Source: a virus. From it: DNA of 53,436 nucleotides. How positions within the stretch are numbered: the stretch's first letter is position 1; the number at the start of each line of letters is the position of its first letter. Positions 2,720 through 32,117 of the stretch are shown here, in pieces. The stretch lies in IMG/VR virus record IMGVR_UViG_3300030503_000465. One strand, given 5' to 3'. Made by a program: the position numbers and the translations under genes. The notes beneath the pieces were generated by a model, which saw only the letters and a list, made by a program, of their open reading frames with translations, was not told where the DNA came from and did no database searches.

Positions 2720-3559
2720 TTATTGTGCTATAAAAGTTAAACTATCAGCCAAAGTATCGCCAGTTGTTGTTTCGCTAACAAGATACCCCGCTACCGTACT
2801 ATACGTTCTGCTAATAACCTGGTTATCCTGTATCAAATAAGTGCCATCTGCAAATGATGTTCCATCTGTACGGGCTTTTACGTTAGTAAGTATAACATCA
2901 TTAACGCCTGGTACAGCACGTATGGCTAATTCAATATCAGATAATTTCAGCGTCCCGTTAAATGTTAGTGCGGCTAAAAGTGCGTTGATCGCATTAATAA
3001 CTGTTTCCTGAATAATTGCACTGTATTGCCCCTGGTAGTAAACATTTGCGCCGATATACAATTCATCTGCATTGGCAGATGTAACCACATAATTAATGGT
3101 TGCGCCTATTGCGTCTACATAACTTTGCGCAGCCGATAACTGGTCGCTGGTCAATGCCTGCGGCGGATTTCCGGTTGCCACCTTTATGAGTGTTTGTCCC
3201 GAAACGGTTGTTACTACACTTGCACGGCTTATGATCTGATATGCTGTATTTACGGTAGGGTAAGCGGGCGCGAAATTGATAAGCTGTATAATTTGCGGTA
3301 TGGTTTCATTATACTGAAATAGCAACATTTGATTCTGAAGCCATGCTGCACTTGCGGGTGCTGCGGTTGACGCGATGGTCTCAACCTGTGTAGTGAAAAT
3401 ATCTATCAGGCTCTCCAGAATATTGATAGCCGTAGCAAGAATAAAAGTCAATAACCGGTATATCGCACGTTTAGAGGTTGATGTAAGTCCGCTTAATGTT
3501 GGGTCGGCGGCAATGTCGGCGAGCATGAGATTTTGTATAACTGCGATTGATCTGGCCAT
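2720..3559 (-). CDS. Putative baseplate wedge protein (J/gp47-like).
   Basis: 279 aa. Composition and the position upstream of fibre genes fit, but I saw no firm motif. Confidence 0.35.
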   Translation of the reverse strand: MARSIAVIQNLMLADIAADPTLSGLTSTSKRAIYRLLTFILATAINILESLIDIFTTQVETIASTAAPASAAWLQNQMLLFQYNETIPQIIQLINFAPAYPTVNTAYQIISRASVVTTVSGQTLIKVATGNPPQALTSDQLSAAQSYVDAIGATINYVVTSANADELYIGANVYYQGQYSAIIQETVINAINALLAALTFNGTLKLSDIELAIRAVPGVNDVILTNVKARTDGTSFADGTYLIQDNQVISRTYSTVAGYLVSETTTGDTLADSLTFIAQ

Positions 3560-3910: not shown

Positions 3911-4458
3911 TATTCGCTTTCGGTTAAACCACCTGTTATTACTAATTCAGTCGGCGGTGTACTATTAATGTATATCCCCCTGCCAACATCAAAACCACTT
4001 CCTTTACTATCAGTAAACCCGGTAGTAAATTCAATCAAATATACATAAATATTATCATGCTCATAATCTTGCTCTTCTGCGGTTAAACACATATTACCGC
4101 AAGCGGTGGGCCTGTAATCTGATAAGCAGGCAATAACCTGATCGCGCAAATCAAAAATCGGCAAGTCCTGTGCAAAAGTACCATCCTGCGCATCCGTAAA
4201 CCAATGCTCCAAATGTATGCGGAAAACAATATCCGATTCCGACACGCCATTGCCTAAACGGTTATATGTGGCAGGTTTTATTACCTCAACAAACGCGGCA
4301 GCGTCGGGGTATGCTTCTATTTTACCTGCGGTACGCCATTTACGCTGATTGTTGAAAATACGGGTATATAGCGGTACAGTTTGCGCATCCTGATTCTGTA
4401 CTTGAATGGTGGCAAGTTGGGTTAAGACATCGGTTATCGCGGGTTTAATTCCAGGCAT
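3910..4458 (-). CDS. Putative head-tail joining or tail-completion protein.
   Basis: 182 aa, directly downstream of a Mu gpG-like gene. The call rests on position only. Confidence 0.35.
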   Translation of the reverse strand: MPGIKPAITDVLTQLATIQVQNQDAQTVPLYTRIFNNQRKWRTAGKIEAYPDAAAFVEVIKPATYNRLGNGVSESDIVFRIHLEHWFTDAQDGTFAQDLPIFDLRDQVIACLSDYRPTACGNMCLTAEEQDYEHDNIYVYLIEFTTGFTDSKGSGFDVGRGIYINSTPPTELVITGGLTESE

Positions 4459-24955: not shown

Positions 24956-25201
24956 TTAATCAGGATACCAAATTAAGGTATTTAATACACTATCTATTAT
25001 TTCGGTATTTAAATCAACTTGACCATCTCCATAAACATATGAATAGTTTTGGCTTTTATCGAAATGAACATTATAGTAATTACCAGATACGAATCCATAA
25101 TCTTGTGCCGTAACTGTGGCTTTTATTTTACCGCTTTGCACCTGTGACAATGGTACGGTCGTGCCGGTTGATGTTAGGATTGGGCGGTTATCCTGTGACA
25201 T
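24956..25201 (-). CDS. Hypothetical protein, 81 aa.
   Basis: ORF overlapping the end of the endolysin gene. Confidence 0.5.
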   Translation of the reverse strand: MSQDNRPILTSTGTTVPLSQVQSGKIKATVTAQDYGFVSGNYYNVHFDKSQNYSYVYGDGQVDLNTEIIDSVLNTLIWYPD

Positions 25202-25847
25202 TTGCCAAAGCGTTTAATTGATCCTGTGAACCTGTGAAATAATCACCATCCATGTCGCTATTATTCCAACGATAAGTATTTTGCCAAAATTCGGGTAATC
25301 CCCCTGTATCATAACGAACAGGGCAATTTTCCTGTAAAGATGAAAGCCACATCGGATTGTTTGGAAGCGGCGATGAATGGAAATATTCACGCATGTAATT
25401 ATTGTAGCTGTAAATGATACAGTCACGGGTTGTTTGCTGTTTTACGTAGTTTAAAAAGTCATTCAACCGTTGCAATGCCAATTCCCAATTATCGGCAACC
25501 CATTGATTTTGAACTTGTGTATCGGCATCGTTTTTACCTACAATATCTTCTACATCGATGCAGGGGGGCAAACATCCTACCCCTAAAAAATTAATATTTA
25601 GCGACAAAAAGTTTTTAGCTTGTGCAATTCCATCATAACGAGCATCGAAAAAATGATACGCCCCACGTTTTAGGTTTGGTGTGTTTTTGGCTTCTTGCCA
25701 TGAAGTATTAAATGTCGGGTCTTGATATGTTATGCCCTGTGTGGCTTTAAAAAAGATAAACTGTATACCCTTAGCTGTTAGTTGAGTTAGCGGTATTGGG
25801 TCGTTTAAATGGGACCTGTCAACGCCTGGAATATAATTGTTTGCCAT
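25188..25847 (-). CDS. Endolysin, glycoside hydrolase family 25 muramidase.
   Basis: GVDRSHLN...GIQFIFFKATQGITYQDPTF...GAYHFF matches the GH25 signature. ATG at 25847. Confidence 0.8.
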   Translation of the reverse strand: MANNYIPGVDRSHLNDPIPLTQLTAKGIQFIFFKATQGITYQDPTFNTSWQEAKNTPNLKRGAYHFFDARYDGIAQAKNFLSLNINFLGVGCLPPCIDVEDIVGKNDADTQVQNQWVADNWELALQRLNDFLNYVKQQTTRDCIIYSYNNYMREYFHSSPLPNNPMWLSSLQENCPVRYDTGGLPEFWQNTYRWNNSDMDGDYFTGSQDQLNALANVTG

Positions 25848-26015
25848 AAGTGTGTACCTTAATCTACGATTCAAACTCTTTTTTAACTATGAAACACAGT
25901 AAAGGCCATGTTATGATTATTAATGCCAGTGCAATGTATAATTTTACTTTTTTCATGGCTTCTTATTTACTTTCCCAAATTTATGTATTTTCTTTTTATG
26001 TTTTGAAAGTTTTTC

Positions 26016-26046: not shown

Positions 26047-26505
26047 ATGAAACTATTTAGAAAGAGAAAAATCATTTACGGTTGTGCCGCACGTGGGGAT
26101 GAACATTCGCCGTATTTAACAAGATGGGAATTGCTTTCTACAAAGCGGTTTGCAATATACTTACACAGGTTTGAACGTTCTGATGACAGGTCAAGTTTGC
26201 ACGATCACCCGTGGAACTTTATCACTATACCATTGAAATATGGATATAATGATTGTACTTATAACGGCGGCAAAGACAAGGATGGAAATCCTGATTTTAA
26301 CAGAAAATTAATGAAGCCATTTCACATTTATTATCGCCCGGCAACACATATTCATTTTGTCGAATTGCATCAGGATATGTTTTTACCCGTAGAGCGTAAA
26401 GCATGGACTTTGGTATTTAGATTCAAATACATAAGGTATTGGGGTTTTTGGCGTAAAGGATTATTTACTGTATTTCATGAGTATTTTATCAAAAACGGTT
26501 GTTAA
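26047..26505 (+). CDS. Hypothetical protein with an HDHPW motif, 152 aa.
   Basis: YLHRFERSDDRSSLHDHPWNF. Function unknown. The gene has its own promoter box and terminator. Confidence 0.6.
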   Translation: MKLFRKRKIIYGCAARGDEHSPYLTRWELLSTKRFAIYLHRFERSDDRSSLHDHPWNFITIPLKYGYNDCTYNGGKDKDGNPDFNRKLMKPFHIYYRPATHIHFVELHQDMFLPVERKAWTLVFRFKYIRYWGFWRKGLFTVFHEYFIKNGC

Positions 26506-26869: not shown

Positions 26870-27106
26870 TTAGTAATTATCTTCCTCGGGGACTAATGTA
26901 AAGTCAACGTAATATTGCCGACCGGGAATGATAAAATCATAGGCTTTAGGATTACTAATCATCATTGTGATAGTTCCGCTTGGAGTTGCCTGTGAAAACT
27001 CGTTATCTTCCGTGTTTTTCTTGTTTGAATAAACGGCAGATAATTGCACTTCTTTTGACCCGTATCCGAAATCTTTTACGTAGTCACCTTTAAATTTTGC
27101 TCTCAA
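26870..27106 (-). CDS. Hypothetical protein, 78 aa, with a TTG start.
   Basis: ORF downstream of a minus-strand -7 box. Confidence 0.45.
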   Translation of the reverse strand: MRAKFKGDYVKDFGYGSKEVQLSAVYSNKKNTEDNEFSQATPSGTITMMISNPKAYDFIIPGRQYYVDFTLVPEEDNY

Positions 27107-27152: not shown

Positions 27153-27198
27153 AAACATTTGTGAAAGTTAAAAATGTTTGGTAGTATTGTGGTGTCGA
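27153..27198 (+). promoter_or_regulatory. Promoter: ..TTG - N20 - TAGTATTG - N2 - GTGTCGA.
   Basis: Same spacing and the same GTGTCRA element as the promoters at 20283 and 32334. One mismatch in the -7 box. Confidence 0.45.
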
Positions 27199-27226
27199 AA
27201 TAGTTCGACCGTAAAAGCTATACATA

Positions 27227-28198
27227 ATGAAAACTCAAATTTACAACTCCTATATGGAGTTCTTGTCACGTGGTGACAAAAAAGAAAACGGTGTATCAAA
27301 ATCATTCGCCGAATTAAACCCAAATTTCGAAACCGATAACAGCACAAACGAAGCGTGTTGGAATTGCCGTGGTTGCCGTGGTTGCAGTGATTGCAGTGGT
27401 TGCCATGGTTGCCATGGTTGCCGTGGTTGCCGTGGTTGCCATGGTTGCCATGGTTGCCGTGGTTGCCGTGGTTGCCGTGGTTGCAGTGATTGCCATGGTT
27501 GCCATGGTTGCCATGGTTGCCGTGATTGCCGTGATTGCCGTGGTTGCAGTGATTGCAGTGGTTGCCATGGTTGCCATGGTTGCCATGGTTGCAGTGATTG
27601 CAGTGGTTGCAGTGATTGCCGTGGTTGCCGTGGTTGCAGTGATTGCAGTGGTTGCCATGGTTGCCATGATTGCCGTGGTTGCAGTGATTGCAGTGATTGC
27701 CATGATTGCCATGGTTGCAGTGATTGCAGTGATTGCCATGGTTGCCATGGTTGCAGTGATTGCAGTGATTGCCATGGTTGCCGTGGTTGCAGTGATTTAT
27801 ATTTTAAAATGAATATCGAAAACCAAGTCGATAAAAAAACAGAATCGGAAAAACCAAGCCACCCAACTTTTGCAGGTATGAAAATACCAATACTGTCCAA
27901 TATACACCAACAAATATTAGAGGCTATCACGCCACCTGAACAACGCTTGAATATGAACGCTTGGCATACTTGCGGAACTACACATTGCCGCGCGGGATGG
28001 GCGGTTCATTTAGCCGGTAAAGAGGGGTATGAGTTGGAGAAAATAGGTGGAACTTGTTTTGCGGCTATGATGATTTTTAAATACTCATCACCAATAAAAG
28101 TTAGCCCTGTTCGGTTTTTTGAAGATAACGAGACAGCTTATCGTGATATTAAGAAATGCGCAACCGCCGAAAAGAGGCGCAATAAAAAGACTGCATGA
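27227..28198 (+). CDS. Cys-triplet repeat protein: a 43-aa N-terminus, then 49 x C-(R/H/S/W)-(G/D/N), then a ~175-aa C-terminal domain with a CGTTHCRAGW motif.
   Basis: The translation shows a cysteine at every third residue for 147 aa. The gene is monocistronic, with its own promoter and terminator. Confidence 0.75.
   Translation: MKTQIYNSYMEFLSRGDKKENGVSKSFAELNPNFETDNSTNEACWNCRGCRGCSDCSGCHGCHGCRGCRGCHGCHGCRGCRGCRGCSDCHGCHGCHGCRDCRDCRGCSDCSGCHGCHGCHGCSDCSGCSDCRGCRGCSDCSGCHGCHDCRGCSDCSDCHDCHGCSDCSDCHGCHGCSDCSDCHGCRGCSDLYFKMNIENQVDKKTESEKPSHPTFAGMKIPILSNIHQQILEAITPPEQRLNMNAWHTCGTTHCRAGWAVHLAGKEGYELEKIGGTCFAAMMIFKYSSPIKVSPVRFFEDNETAYRDIKKCATAEKRRNKKTA
27356..27796 (+). repeat. 49 x 9-bp tandem repeat TGC-(CGT/CAT/AGT)-(GGT/GAT).
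   Basis: Read directly. It uses one codon per amino acid, except that the first unit is TGT-TGG-AAT. Confidence 0.95.
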
Positions 28199-28229
28199 CA
28201 GGTTGATAGCTTAGCCTATCTGCTTTAAC

Positions 28230-28264
28230 AACCCGCCCTACGCAAGTTCGGTGGGTTTGTTTTT
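28230..28264 (+). terminator. Intrinsic terminator.
   Basis: AACCCGCC...GGTGGGTT stem followed by TTTGTTTTT. Confidence 0.7.
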
Positions 28265-28571
28265 ATTTCCTATTCTGTTTTAAATAATCTACATCTTTTT
28301 GTATAAGGGATATCTCTATCTCCTGCGTACCGACCTGGTTTTGAAGCGCCTTAATAGCGAGATCATTGGCGATGGACATTTTATTATTATTATCCTTCAA
28401 CTCATTGATGGCATTCGTTAAGTTGTCGATCTTAGCGTTCATGGTGACTATAAAAATAACCGCAGTTATAATCAACGCAACAAATTGTACTACATCTTTA
28501 AGTTTAAATTCGGTGTCTAATAGGGGTGTTTTCTCGTCCATGAGCCAGTTATATTTTGCTAAAGTTACCAT
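28263..28571 (-). CDS. Membrane-anchored coiled-coil protein, possibly an Rz-like i-spanin.
   Basis: One TM helix (VVQFVALIITAVIFIVTM) followed by heptad-like sequence. Confidence 0.3.
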   Translation of the reverse strand: MVTLAKYNWLMDEKTPLLDTEFKLKDVVQFVALIITAVIFIVTMNAKIDNLTNAINELKDNNNKMSIANDLAIKALQNQVGTQEIEISLIQKDVDYLKQNRK

Positions 28572-28618: not shown

Positions 28619-29143
28619 TTATTGTTTAATGACTACGTAATCAAAAGATAAGTTATTTGTTCCAATGGTTGGTGCAACCACAAAATTAACCGTAAATCCG
28701 GTAGTGGTTATTGAACTTACATACGATGGCCCGGCTGCAGCCAGTGAACGGGGAATAATCAAAACTGTTATTGGCGTAAATGGCAATGTCCCGCTTGAAT
28801 AAGTGACCGTGTACGATGTGGTGAGCGAAATTCCGCTCGAGGTAACATTTCCTTTTATGGTATTTCCGCTCCCTATTCTCAACCATCTTCTTGTTGAAAT
28901 TCCTGTAACTGCAATTGTAATAAAACCATCATCAATGGCCGTGGAAGAACTATTCCAGTTATAATTACCACCGTTACCATCCGTAGCCGATGTTAATCCC
29001 ATTAAAGTAACTATTTCATTGGTTTGCGGAGTAAAGCCGCGCAAATCAGTAAGCGTAGAAAGCGTCACCAGGGACATCGGGATTTGTTGGGCTTTGGAAA
29101 AAATACAAACAATAAGGAGTGGAATAATAAGTAGCTTTTTCAT
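28619..29143 (-). CDS. Secreted beta-rich protein, associated with the fibre locus.
   Basis: Signal peptide MKKLLIIPLLIVCIFSKAQQ. Also contains the motif GGNYNWNSSSTAIDDGFITI...RRWLRI. Confidence 0.5.
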   Translation of the reverse strand: MKKLLIIPLLIVCIFSKAQQIPMSLVTLSTLTDLRGFTPQTNEIVTLMGLTSATDGNGGNYNWNSSSTAIDDGFITIAVTGISTRRWLRIGSGNTIKGNVTSSGISLTTSYTVTYSSGTLPFTPITVLIIPRSLAAAGPSYVSSITTTGFTVNFVVAPTIGTNNLSFDYVVIKQ

Positions 29144-29226
29144 TTTAATTTACATATTAAGGTTTTAAATATCATGAACATACAGAAAGCATCTGTTATG
29201 AGGGCGATTATTGTTAAAGTGTTCAT
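29140..29226 (-). CDS. Tiny membrane peptide, 28 aa.
   Basis: MNTLTIIALITDAFCMFMIFKTLICKLK. TAATG and ATGA overlaps couple it to both neighbours. Confidence 0.35.
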   Translation of the reverse strand: MNTLTIIALITDAFCMFMIFKTLICKLK

Positions 29227-32117
29227 TATGGAATTACCTCCCAATTTACAGTACTCGTATCCGTAGTATCGGTAGTATTTGCGTTAGTTAAGGCCGTAAT
29301 CGTGAGAGTTCCGCTTGTGCACACCCCGGCATATTGCCATGTGGTTGAGACGGTTCCACCTACGCTAACAAAAGAAATATATGCTTTCGATGTAGTTGTT
29401 AACCCCGAAATGGAAATAGATTTTGTTCCTGCGACTAACGTTGTTTGACCGCTTGATGCCCAGGTCATTGTTCCTGATGCATTTACTACTGGGCTTTGCC
29501 CTGCCGCGCCAACTACCCCCAAAAGGCGCGGTACACCGTTATGGTCAATGGCGAACTTACTCGAACTTCCGACTTGCAAATCCATTAATAATTGGTTCCC
29601 GCTTCCAATGCCCGTTTCGATTCTGTTCACTAAAAGGTCAGTTGCAGCTCCTGTTCCAGTTTGATTATAGGTCGGCGTAATAGCAAAGTCATTGAACTGT
29701 CCGCTTGAATTAGTGATGGTATTACCGCTAACTGATATATTGGCCCCCGCTACAGACCAATTTCTTTGACCGATAGGAAAGTTGGTATTAGCCACACTAT
29801 AGATACCTGATGTCACGACATAGCTCCCTAATACCATATAACCAGTTGTGGTGGTATTACCAAAATTATCAACCATGAACTTACTCATGTTGCTTAGGGT
29901 TAAATTGATTAAATTATGACTTCCCGAACCAAACGTTCCCAAGCTGTTAAGATAAATATCGGTAAAACCTGCCGTACCTGTTTGCGCACCAGTAGGGTTT
30001 ACATATAGACCGTAGTTTGCCGTACCTGATGATGCGGAGTTTGTTAAAGCAAAGGTGTGTAAGCCTGTCCATGTCGGTACAATAGCCTGTGACAAAGCGG
30101 GTGCCGCATCTGAACGCATAGCGGTGGTTAGCGAACCGTTGACAGCAGTTAAACCAATTGTAGCCGTAGGGTTGGCGTAGGTTGCCCCCGTTACTGTAGC
30201 CCAAGTATTGTCCCCCCTCAAATAAGTAGTACTCGACGGTGTACCCGCTGCGGATAAATCAGCTATTGCAATTTGTGAAAAAGCTGGATTGCCAGAAGCG
30301 TTCCCGTGTAAAACTGTTGTAGTCGTCCCCTGGTTAGCGAAGTCGGATGAAGCAAGCCCTAATGTGATATTTGCGGATAATGCTTTGCCGTTTACGGTTG
30401 TTGTTTTGGGTACGTAGGTTGAAACAATATTAGCCTTTGATAAATAAGGCAGTAGACTTTTTTGTGTAGCAAACCCCGTACTTGTCGTATCTGTATTAGC
30501 CGTTGCAACTGTGAATGAACCGCCTAATGAAGTAGATGTACCGTTTAAAGTTATAGCTGAATTAGTAAGGGACGAATTGCCAATATTGGATAGTGTATTT
30601 GTGCTTCCGCTTATAGATTTGTTAGTCAGCGTATTGGTGCTTGACGGCGTTAAATAAGTGCCTATTGGTTGATAAGTCGAAGCCGCAGTCGTTTGTAGTA
30701 AATAAGCCGTCGCCACATCCGTACTATCCGCAAGCGTAGGATTTAGCCGATACGGCGTACTGATGGTCATATCCGAACCCCGTGTTACCCGTATTGTCCT
30801 GCGATATAACGAGTTTTTCCATGATAATCTGTTAAGGCTGTCCGCATAAATCCGCAAATGGTTTGTAACACTTGCAGGGGACGTTTCAGAGGTCAGGTCG
30901 AGATAACCATTGCCGCCTGTACCCGAAAGTGTTTCATTTGGCCATGTAGGGCTGTATGTCGGATCGAGTTGAATAACATTTGACGGTGCTTTTACGCCGT
31001 TTGTGAAAGTATAGGATGTGCCCGCATGCGCCAATATAGCACTATCAATCTCACCTCGTGTGGGTACTACCAATAGTGATGATTGATAATTAGGTTCGGT
31101 GGCATACGCCATTCCTAAGCCGTTTATTGTATTAAAGATAGTTATACCGTTTTGGGCACCATGATTTAGCCCTTGCATTTGAATTTCCTGTGATTTAGAA
31201 CCCTGTGCGAAATACAAGGTTGAGTTTTGGTCGCTCAATGAAATTACACCAGCGTTTACTCCTGATGAAAGCCCCCCTGAAAGTATCGAACTATTGCTCG
31301 ATGGGTCAACAACTAATTCGGTTATCCCGGCTGTTGTATCACCAATATTATTAGGCGTCCCCAAACTATACAACTGCGATTGCAGCACATAACTTCCACC
31401 ACCCGCGCCTGTGCCAAACTTAAACGTGCTGTCAGAACTGTCCCAAACAACCGGTGTTCCTCCTGAAATAATAGCTATTGTCCCCGGGTACATGAGCTTT
31501 ACACTTTTATTCAGGTGAACATTCTGGGCAAATGTTAATGTATTGTATTTTATTTGGTTACCTGATTGATAAAGTGGTACATTATTTATTGCGCCCGGGC
31601 TTGCGTTAGTAGGGGTAACATAAATATTGCTGATCGGGATGGTGTTATCGGGTATGGAAGGCGGCGTGTATGACGAACCCGGAACGCCCATGGCCAATAA
31701 TATCGTATTTGATCTCGTGGCATATAAAATATCCTGCCTGTATTGCCCTCCCGATGTAGGTGTAATAGTGGTGACGGTCGCGCTTCCTTTGCTATAAAGT
31801 GTATCATTTATCCGCCAGGAACCTGAGGGGGTGGTCGCGGTATAAGAGCTGATCGTGGTTGGTTGCAAACCCGATATAATACCGTCTGTGATTGGTTCGA
31901 ATTTGCTATTCGCTTGCACCGATGTATAAAACTGCGACGACCTGTTACCATTGGCTAAGTAGTAGTTTGCCAAGCTGTCCGTACCGTTATAGCGGAATGT
32001 TGGGGTGAAGCTGGTGGATGAAGGGGGTACGCCGGGCGTAAAGTAGGTCTGCTGCCCCCACCCCCACAATGGTAAAAATAGCAGGAATAGGGTGAGGTAT
32101 TTTAGATGTTTAATCAT
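29226..32117 (-). CDS. Large fibre or adhesin-like protein, 963 aa, with an N-terminal signal-peptide-like segment.
   Basis: MIKHLKYLTLFLLFLPLWGWGQQ followed by Ser/Thr/Gly/Asn-rich beta sequence. Confidence 0.55.
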   Translation of the reverse strand: MIKHLKYLTLFLLFLPLWGWGQQTYFTPGVPPSSTSFTPTFRYNGTDSLANYYLANGNRSSQFYTSVQANSKFEPITDGIISGLQPTTISSYTATTPSGSWRINDTLYSKGSATVTTITPTSGGQYRQDILYATRSNTILLAMGVPGSSYTPPSIPDNTIPISNIYVTPTNASPGAINNVPLYQSGNQIKYNTLTFAQNVHLNKSVKLMYPGTIAIISGGTPVVWDSSDSTFKFGTGAGGGSYVLQSQLYSLGTPNNIGDTTAGITELVVDPSSNSSILSGGLSSGVNAGVISLSDQNSTLYFAQGSKSQEIQMQGLNHGAQNGITIFNTINGLGMAYATEPNYQSSLLVVPTRGEIDSAILAHAGTSYTFTNGVKAPSNVIQLDPTYSPTWPNETLSGTGGNGYLDLTSETSPASVTNHLRIYADSLNRLSWKNSLYRRTIRVTRGSDMTISTPYRLNPTLADSTDVATAYLLQTTAASTYQPIGTYLTPSSTNTLTNKSISGSTNTLSNIGNSSLTNSAITLNGTSTSLGGSFTVATANTDTTSTGFATQKSLLPYLSKANIVSTYVPKTTTVNGKALSANITLGLASSDFANQGTTTTVLHGNASGNPAFSQIAIADLSAAGTPSSTTYLRGDNTWATVTGATYANPTATIGLTAVNGSLTTAMRSDAAPALSQAIVPTWTGLHTFALTNSASSGTANYGLYVNPTGAQTGTAGFTDIYLNSLGTFGSGSHNLINLTLSNMSKFMVDNFGNTTTTGYMVLGSYVVTSGIYSVANTNFPIGQRNWSVAGANISVSGNTITNSSGQFNDFAITPTYNQTGTGAATDLLVNRIETGIGSGNQLLMDLQVGSSSKFAIDHNGVPRLLGVVGAAGQSPVVNASGTMTWASSGQTTLVAGTKSISISGLTTTSKAYISFVSVGGTVSTTWQYAGVCTSGTLTITALTNANTTDTTDTSTVNWEVIP

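Follow-up and report, generated by a model that had tools for sequence, protein, structure and literature searches.

The gene at positions 27227..28198 on the plus strand of a 53,436-nucleotide viral DNA stretch (IMG/VR record IMGVR_UViG_3300030503_000465; the whole stretch is hereinafter called the window) is a single complete open reading frame (ORF) of 323 amino acids plus stop, whose product embeds 49 successive Cys-x-x triplets. Judging from the sequence comparisons reported below, this protein is a long but typical member of a large phage and prophage family with hundreds of such arrays, and not the oddity of a single phage. Its members follow a common scheme, consisting of a small N-terminal head, a variable repeat module, a linker, and a constant helical domain of about 105 residues, named here the THCRAGW domain after its signature motif; the (Cys-x-x)n array appears as the repeat module in about half of the family.

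Tandem Repeats Finder retrieved a single array (27364..27794, period 9, 47.9 copies, 86% matches, 0% indels, score 512); translated in the frame of the ORF, the array covers residues 44-190 (27356..27796) with triplets of 9 bp each and no indels. An earlier note, made from the DNA alone, had described 49 consecutive Cys-X-(Gly/Asp) units; the 49 gap-free triplets were recovered, but the leading one is CWN, so that 48 end in Gly or Asp, namely CHG (15), CSD (13), CRG (12), CSG (4), CRD (2), and CHD (2). The codon count (TGC 48 and TGT 1 for Cys, GGT 31, GAT 17, CAT 17, AGT 17, and CGT 14) agrees with that note on the use of a single codon per residue type within the array. Its further statement that the units differ mostly by single transitions holds for CGT/CAT and GGT/GAT, but not for AGT/CGT, which is a transversion, nor for AGT/CAT, which takes two changes. 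In all, the protein contains 53 Cys, and 17 His lie in the array. The GC content is 54% in the array, 39.4% in the non-repeat parts of the gene, and 38.8% in the window. The higher-order organization of the array is limited to short motifs (RsSH, three times) and one 36-bp duplication; no exact internal repeat is longer than 54 bp, so that ordinary reads of 100-150 nt can order the array. With regard to the idea of a tRNA-Cys supply, no tRNA genes were found in the window. An RNA element at the array was also considered and rejected, all the Rfam matches being far under their gathering scores.

The search with the last 133 residues of the protein as a query retrieved 115 homologs, with no Pfam annotation on the domain. 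Two multialignments (A1 and A2) revealed the invariant motif M..W-H-x-C-x-T-T-H-C-R-A-G-W...G..G, and the window protein holds all the invariant columns (M243, H247, C249, T251, T252, H253, C254, R255, G257, W258, G264, and G267). It belongs to the THCRAGW-domain family, its C-terminal domain being matched by phrog_31265 (4.7e-21), and to the Cys-array subtype, having a type 1 head that ends in CWNC, an in-frame (Cys-x-x)n array, and then the domain. A profile search over 1.84 billion representatives returned 2,632 clusters at E ≤ 1e-3 and 719 at E ≤ 1e-30. Moreover, 480 viral contigs of IMG/VR carry a relative, and relatives are present in 94 out of 185,579 species genomes, belonging to Bacteroidota, Proteobacteria, Planctomycetota, Acidobacteriota, Cyanobacteria, Patescibacteria, and others. 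Eighty viral loci were fetched; 58 of them extend far enough upstream for the array to be read, and in every one the (C-x-x)n array is in frame and has 10-56 triplets. The longest array (65 triplets) was found in a Spirosoma genome bin, and the family as a whole spans 3-65 triplets, which places the 49 of the window near the top without making them unique. The median length is 28.5 triplets when the arrays are read from the DNA versus 13 in pipeline-called proteins, because gene finders fail on long arrays.

Probing phage genomes with the locus by megablast did not retrieve any match, nor did the PADLOC defense profiles at E ≤ 0.1. In Pfam and NCBIfam, the protein and its parts gave only sub-threshold collagen, adhesin, and HxsA4 matches, which were rejected as composition artefacts of the period of three. 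In line with the statement in the earlier note that no phage protein of this type had been described, no paper on the family was found in the literature, searched by motif strings and by concept.

The frame of the array can be checked in Flavobacterium phage FL-1, whose ortholog shares the same N-terminus (MKTQIF...CWNC) and has a Cys-x-x array written in other codons, i.e., TGC-TCC-GAT versus TGC-AGT-GAT in the window, the remaining frames of the two arrays being unrelated peptides. The other frames and strands of the window array (VAVVAM..., QPWQPW..., TAITAT...) were discarded, since only the Cys frame is kept when relatives switch codons; the translated frame is thus the Cys frame, as previously proposed. 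Over 87 arrays, Cys is encoded by TGC or TGT and Ser by AGC, AGT, TCC, TCT, TCG, or TCA, almost always with one codon per array. The Ser codons are AGY-dominant in 19 of these arrays and not in the other 68. AGY and TCN codons are not interconvertible by a single synonymous step, and it is therefore the peptide pattern, and not the DNA, that is conserved. Cys is in register at 4,375 of 4,392 positions (99.6%; 17 non-Cys). Ser fills the middle position in 76% of the pooled units of the family, the remainder having Tyr, Arg, Phe, Trp, and others; the third residue follows the order Asp > Gly > Arg > Ser, Asn, Tyr. At the level of these comparisons, the data demonstrate that selection acts on the peptide, keeping Cys at every third residue, while slippage regenerates the DNA. 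By the same kind of comparison, the ORF at 27227..28198 is a real coding sequence, carried by a Flavobacterium-type phage.

The typical array of the family is Cys-Ser-(Asp/Gly/Arg), and the His/Arg-rich composition found in the window is unusual, representing a peculiarity of the lineage of this phage. Other His-rich arrays were observed in a Chamaesiphon genome bin (L098) and in locus L050 (CHGCHGCHGCHG), and the His-containing variant would therefore have arisen more than once.

Two further contigs of the same phage (L165 and L166), from other samples of the European Nucleotide Archive, were found through the database protein fragment P0001. Over 3.3 kb, L166 shares 99.97% identity with the window and has the 49 units in unchanged order, with one single-nucleotide polymorphism (A27489T, from CSD to CSV). 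L165 harbors 45 units, as exactly 36 bp in frame (four units, HHRR) are missing within 27396..27476, the gene being otherwise identical; the end points of this indel are ambiguous, a 45-bp stretch being repeated 36 bp apart. These independent contigs, a partial stand-in for the read mapping advised earlier as a check against an artefact, reproduced the 49-unit array and disclosed a natural in-frame variant. Furthermore, relatives with identical flanks differ in their number of triplets (11 versus 14, 30 versus 50, 25 versus 28, and, for P0050 and P0051, 4 versus 10). Both the 45-triplet variant and these relatives bear out the expansion and contraction by slippage or unequal recombination that the array had suggested at first sight. 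All these patterns show that this process keeps remaking the arrays at the DNA level, in multiples of 9 bp; this, in turn, accounts for the use of one codon per residue within an array, of different codons between arrays, and for the length polymorphism of near-identical phages.

In 17 of the 80 viral loci (L006, L007, L017, L019, L023, L026, L032, L034, L041, L044, L048, L057, L063, and others), the frame is open to the end of the contig just upstream of the C-terminal domain. Short-read assemblies thus seem prone to break within the arrays, and the copy numbers in databases may therefore be underestimated.

Automated gene calling performs poorly on these loci. The window gene itself is stored as P0001 (27809..28198), which includes only the last 129 residues and starts past the array, and spurious ORFs have been called over arrays, either in the +2 frame (135 and 147 residues; L165 1097-1504 and L166 985-1428) or on the minus strand (153 residues; L004 3487-3948). 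In L004, the true ORF of 262 residues is split into a 78-residue fragment and a bogus minus-strand gene. Many of the "domain-only" matches in databases are probably such truncations. In phage FL-1 (L001, KY421186.2, 2503-3319), the GenBank annotation is in error: APZ82901.1 reads the Cys array in its VAPIAP frame, and APZ82918.1 covers a C-terminal fragment. At about 3105-3110 of this record, an extra A interrupts the THCRAGW codons (ACT CAA TTG TCG; expected ACT CAT TGT CGT), so that the FL-1 copy is a pseudogene broken by a frameshift, unless the extra base is an error of sequencing. The family would have been overlooked because gene finders discard or mis-frame the array and no profile library covers the C-terminal domain.

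The N-terminus lacks a signal peptide, as previously noted. Its type 1 head (MKTQIYxSYxEFLxRxDKxxNGVSxxFAxxNPxFExxNxTNxx, or MKTQIFxSYxEFLxRxDKxxNGVS...CWNC) was recognized in 132 of the 209 array-bearing relatives and, by tblastn, the head was found in 59 places among the fetched loci; other relatives have a type 2 head (TWIxDxNGNxCSVxYFGSxxAAxxALxSLxxC). No Pfam or NCBIfam model matched the head, for which AlphaFold2 predicts a small folded domain, with a predicted local distance difference test (pLDDT) value of about 90 over residues 1-40. In the same model the array has a pLDDT of 35-67 and a regular bridge every third residue. The region following the array, put at about 175 residues in the earlier note, amounts in fact to 133, that is, a linker of about 28 residues and a domain of about 105; the latter is predicted to be all-helical (overall pLDDT 82.8, most of the domain exceeding 90).

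On the shared C-terminal domain, we counted 209 Cys arrays and 142 pentapeptide proteins, and C-terminal domains are up to 66% identical between the two architectures. The same domain also occurs with hexapeptide-type (PF00132), 12-residue, or leucine-rich-repeat-like repeats, or alone. These fusions show that the repeat module is exchangeable and the C-terminal domain autonomous. The further modules observed in fusion with the domain (L155, P0044, P0099, P0100, and P0022) include a 12-residue repeat (ATVARVLGIASD), a leucine-rich-repeat-like one (LSSLTSLEGVTLA), a hexapeptide-type one (GKGAWVGEGATV; PF00132), and a run of the APTAQT type. Moreover, Xanthomonas sp. NCPPB 1128 carries two identical copies of the pentapeptide type (L160 and L161) on one contig, about 37 kb apart, which may represent two related prophages or a duplication.

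The structure and homology check advised for the full protein and for its C-terminal region left the domain without any sequence or fold match in the libraries searched. Foldseek with the domain gave nothing significant against the PDB and, against BFVD, only the fragment of phage FL-1; a PDB profile search with the domain alignment returned only pentapeptide matches, stemming from the N-terminal columns of the alignment. With the full-length model, Foldseek E-values ranged from 1.4 to 9.5, none significant, the weak matches including beta-helices (MfpA, AlbG, SV2C, and the P22 tailspike). The approximately 105 residues are conserved and are also found alone or with pentapeptide repeats; the C-terminal domain is probably the functional core of the family and not an appendage. 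Its signature motif is a candidate Zn site or active loop, and the invariant H-x-C-x3-H-C within it (H247, C249, H253, and C254) is probably a Zn site.

The features of the gene and its surroundings are listed in Table 1. The window belongs to a Flavobacterium-type tailed phage with a Mu-like portal, a tape-measure protein, and a Clp protease, and its terminase is about 43% identical to Flavobacterium phage terminases. The gene is wedged between minus-strand genes, as noted earlier, and the flanking ORFs look real. Of the promoter and terminator attributed to it, the terminator was substantiated: the hairpin lies 27 nt past the stop, none of 200 shuffled sequences was as good, and a consensus terminator scan missed it only on account of its loop, which exceeds the permitted length. 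It may serve both convergent genes. The promoter is putative: a sigma-70 scan returned no plus-strand site upstream of the gene, and the Bacteroidetes-type element recognized by eye (TTTG at 27158-27161, a 20-nt spacer, and TAgtATTG at 27182-27189) follows a pattern occurring at chance frequency in the window. The inverted repeat just upstream of the ATG may act as an operator or form a hairpin in the leader.

The idea that the gene is a moron appears doubtful, since outside the repeat it matches the window in GC content and its relatives are co-directional with early recombination and replication genes; it is only in the window that the gene sits amid lysis and tail genes of the minus strand. 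The early genes near relatives encode Prim-Pol, Dam, C5 and N6/N4 methylases, SNF2, YqaJ, ERF, DnaB, NinG, and YopX; a RecT-like gene near relatives rests on a weak, sub-threshold match. In phage RpY1, the family gene adjoins a cI-like repressor. A link with the "cysteine dioxygenase"-like ORF at 26047..26505 was considered and rejected, as neither Pfam nor the PDB offers a match for this ORF and none of the other fetched loci contains it; its closeness to a Cys-rich gene may be a coincidence.

Table 1. Features of the Cys-array gene and of its surroundings in the window.
Feature	Position	Strand	Basis and remarks
N-terminal head, 43 residues, type 1	27227..27355	+	AlphaFold2, tblastn; ends in the CWNC start of the array
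(Cys-x-x)49 array	27356..27796	+	Tandem Repeats Finder, translation; reproduced in L166, 45 units in L165
Segment with the 36-bp (4-unit, HHRR) indel	27396..27476	+	Comparison with an independent assembly
Non-repetitive linker, residues 191-218	27797..27880	+	pLDDT 50-60; unconserved in alignments A1 and A2
C-terminal all-helical domain, residues 219-323, constant module of the family	27881..28195	+	Profile, homologs, AlphaFold2
Signature motif W246-H-T-C-G-T-T-H-C-R-A-G-W258	27962..28000	+	Invariant columns in alignments A1 and A2
Promoter-like element, putative	27158..27189	+	One mismatch to TAnnTTTG; pattern at chance frequency in the window
6-bp perfect inverted repeat GTCGAA-atag-TTCGAC, putative 5' leader	27194..27209	+	Sequence; 18 nt before the ATG
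Intrinsic terminator, hairpin 28227..28261 and U-run	28227..28268	+	Free energy -15.8 kcal/mol, z = -3.8
GH25 (glycoside hydrolase family 25) endolysin	25188..25874	-	Window neighbor
152-residue ORF, one gene upstream	26047..26505	+	phrog_4786 "cysteine dioxygenase", 1.8e-30
Small ORF	26870..27106	-	phrog_6978, 4e-11
102-residue ORF	28263..28571	-	Weak phrog_3999 match, 7e-4
Tail beta protein	28619..29143	-	Phage_tail_beta in the precomputed Pfam table; weak tail-spike PHROG match
963-residue tail-fiber-like gene	29226..32117	-	Window neighbor
330-residue ORF, unrelated to the array gene	41532..42524	+	Weak matches: group-1 glycosyltransferase, "GT4-conflict" (conflict-system glycosyltransferase family)

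As for the function, we tentatively propose, with a probability of roughly 0.4, that the protein joins a C-terminal effector to an array forming a metal-thiolate rod or solenoid, and acts early in infection as a decoy or scaffold directed at the host. In this scenario, the C-terminal domain would be the effector, with the candidate H-x-C-x3-H-C Zn site, and the array would be a thiolate-rich rod or solenoid stabilized by metal (most likely Zn), taking the structural place that pentapeptide, hexapeptide-type, or other repeats hold in the sister proteins. The protein would be made early in infection and would bind a host factor as a decoy or scaffold, as the pentapeptide-repeat DNA mimics do, the length and the surface residues of the array being free to vary. 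Metal binding by the array is a speculation grounded in general chemistry, i.e., a cytoplasmic protein with Cys, and here also His, in CxxC spacing, and the rod or solenoid is inferred from the position of the repeat in the architecture.

Proteins with pentapeptide repeats offer comparisons for this scenario. The "putative pentapeptide repeat proteins" (PF00805) of Ralstonia phages RSK1 and RpY1 and their kin carry the same THCRAGW domain, with 41-46% identity to the window, have the same layout of head, repeat module, linker, and domain, and are encoded in the early region; however, their module is an A(D/N)LXX beta-helix, whereas that of the window protein is Cys-x-x, with no PF00805 match. 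The pentapeptide DNA mimics MfpA, Qnr, AlbG, and McbG are comparable by analogy only, in that the repeat occupies the same architectural position and the Foldseek similarity to MfpA and AlbG is non-significant; unlike them, the window family has only mildly acidic arrays, and there is no sequence or significant fold similarity.

Several observations weigh against the proposed scenario. The array is modelled with the low confidence given above, and every fold match of the full model has E > 1. The mild acidity of the arrays corresponds to a median of +0.05 net acidic charge per residue, 25% of them not being net acidic, and close DNA mimicry would therefore need the charge of bound-metal thiolates. 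Arrays of 3-4 triplets and domain-only proteins exist; a long array would therefore be dispensable for the core function. Furthermore, the window gene lies outside the early module, among lysis and tail genes of the opposite strand, and no conserved partner gene emerged, the most widespread neighbor cluster being present in 12 of 155 loci. A bolder version, in which (Cys-Ser/X-X)n would be an unrecognized encoded metal-thiolate (Zn or Fe-S) polymer or solenoid, interchangeable with pentapeptide beta-helices and serving early in infection as a fast-evolving decoy on a THCRAGW effector against a nucleic-acid enzyme or a defense system of the host, has to be considered unlikely.

In principle, and in line with the speculation of the earlier note on metal binding or redox chemistry, the array could itself be the active part, either as a metallothionein- or phytochelatin-like sink for Zn, Cu, or Fe, or as a thiol buffer of redox state or reactive oxygen species, with a capacity scaling with copy number. 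The 53 Cys and 17 array His in 323 residues, the CxxC spacing all through the array, the conservation of Cys while the other two positions drift, and a freely varying copy number, expected of a tunable capacity, are all in keeping with it, as is the PHROG label "cysteine dioxygenase" of the upstream same-strand gene. Metallothioneins, phytochelatins, and the DnaJ-type CxxCxGxG zinc knuckles resemble the window array in their many Cys spaced as CxxC, in the Gly or Asp that follows the Cys pair, and in the thiolate-metal chemistry to be expected; but neither Pfam nor NCBIfam revealed any homology, metallothionein models included, and those families are not known to keep a strict period of three across as many as 195 residues. 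In addition, sequestration is hard to square, as the purpose of the family, with the Cys-free pentapeptide, hexapeptide-type, and other repeats on close C-terminal domains, with the domain-only forms, and with members having just 3-6 triplets, and the upstream neighbor lacks both domain support and a counterpart in the other loci; overall, a sponge of this kind seems doubtful. The view of the array as a tolerated low-complexity spacer, a flexible or disordered linker inflated by slippage that merely separates head and C-terminal domain, would fit its low AlphaFold2 confidence, its length of 3-65 triplets, variable even between identical flanks, and its replacement by other repeat types. Nevertheless, Cys is costly and reactive, and neutrality would neither hold it at 99.6% of 4,392 positions across phyla and independent codon sets nor confine the last residue of the triplet to Asp, Gly, Arg, Ser, or Asn; this view is accordingly improbable. 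Still less credence, close to none, can be given to two further explanations. A collagen-like (Gly-X-Y) triple helix recalls the phage tail-fiber and bacterial Scl/Lcl proteins in its period of three and frequent Gly, and tail-fiber-like genes adjoin; sub-threshold matches to Pfam Collagen and to collagen-like adhesin or tail-fiber PHROG or NCBIfam entries point the same way. However, the protein does not qualify as a collagen member, PF01391 scoring 21.5 bits versus a cut-off of 27.2, and the invariant residue is Cys, Gly being optional (31 of 48 third positions in the window) and Asp or Arg equally common, with Asp > Gly > Arg over the family; moreover, the gene lies on the strand opposite to the tail genes and its relatives in early modules. 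An assembly artefact or non-coding repeat could be suspected from the contigs of 17 of the 80 viral loci ending just upstream of the domain, but a second sample yielded the same 49-unit order and a third one a clean 36-bp variant, exact internal repeats do not exceed 54 bp, the frame is kept across more than 200 relatives, and all the Rfam matches are far under threshold.

It is very improbable, too, that the array is a substrate similar to ribosomally synthesized and post-translationally modified peptides, in which Cys(-Ser) triplets would be converted into thiazol(in)e/oxazol(in)e rings, as in sonorensin/heterocycloanthracin or microcin B17, to give a rigid poly-azole segment, possibly targeting a topoisomerase as pentapeptide-repeat proteins do. 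Pentapeptide proteins (McbG, Qnr, and AlbG) and microcin B17 all act on gyrase, which counts in favor of this idea, and the consensus Cys-Ser-X would give thiazole-oxazole pairs. The only described Cys-Xaa-Xaa tandem arrays are precursors of this kind (PMC2674419), and the nearest described objects are indeed the heterocycloanthracin/sonorensin bacteriocin precursors of Bacillus (thiazole/oxazole-modified microcins; TIGR03601, PF27784), which contain Cys-Xaa-Xaa repeats including Cys-Arg-Gly, differ between strains by tripeptide indels, and are missed by gene finders (Haft 2009, PMC2674419). The window family shares with them the tandem Cys-Xaa-Xaa, the whole-tripeptide indels, and the mis-called genes. 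The protein does not belong to that group, however, since no NCBIfam match was obtained for TIGR03601 at E ≤ 1, and PF27784 (Bacteriocin_sonorensin) gave only a faint precomputed match on 4 relatives, which mirrors the likeness of the repeats. The precursors are peptides of 50-90 residues with a leader and a C-terminal core, whereas the window protein has 323 residues and an internal array flanked by folded domains, the C-terminal one within a 133-residue region. They also need a cyclodehydratase, a dehydrogenase, and a docking protein; none of these, nor YcaO or an McbC-type dehydrogenase, was found in the ten longest unannotated ORFs of the window, and no maturase gene occurs among the conserved neighbors in 155 loci. 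Finally, the family extends over many phyla, and a maturase cannot be available in all of their hosts; Ser is missing from two thirds of the window units.

If first impressions of the family hold, its proteins form a widespread class in phages that has been hidden from view. Phage genomes need to be re-annotated in a repeat-aware manner. A polymer with Cys at every third residue, up to 195 residues long and kept by selection in many bacterial phyla, has no described structural or biochemical precedent beyond small bacteriocin precursors. Its study might yield a new metal-binding or solenoid fold, a new mechanism of host takeover or anti-defense, and a length-tunable Cys scaffold for biotechnology.

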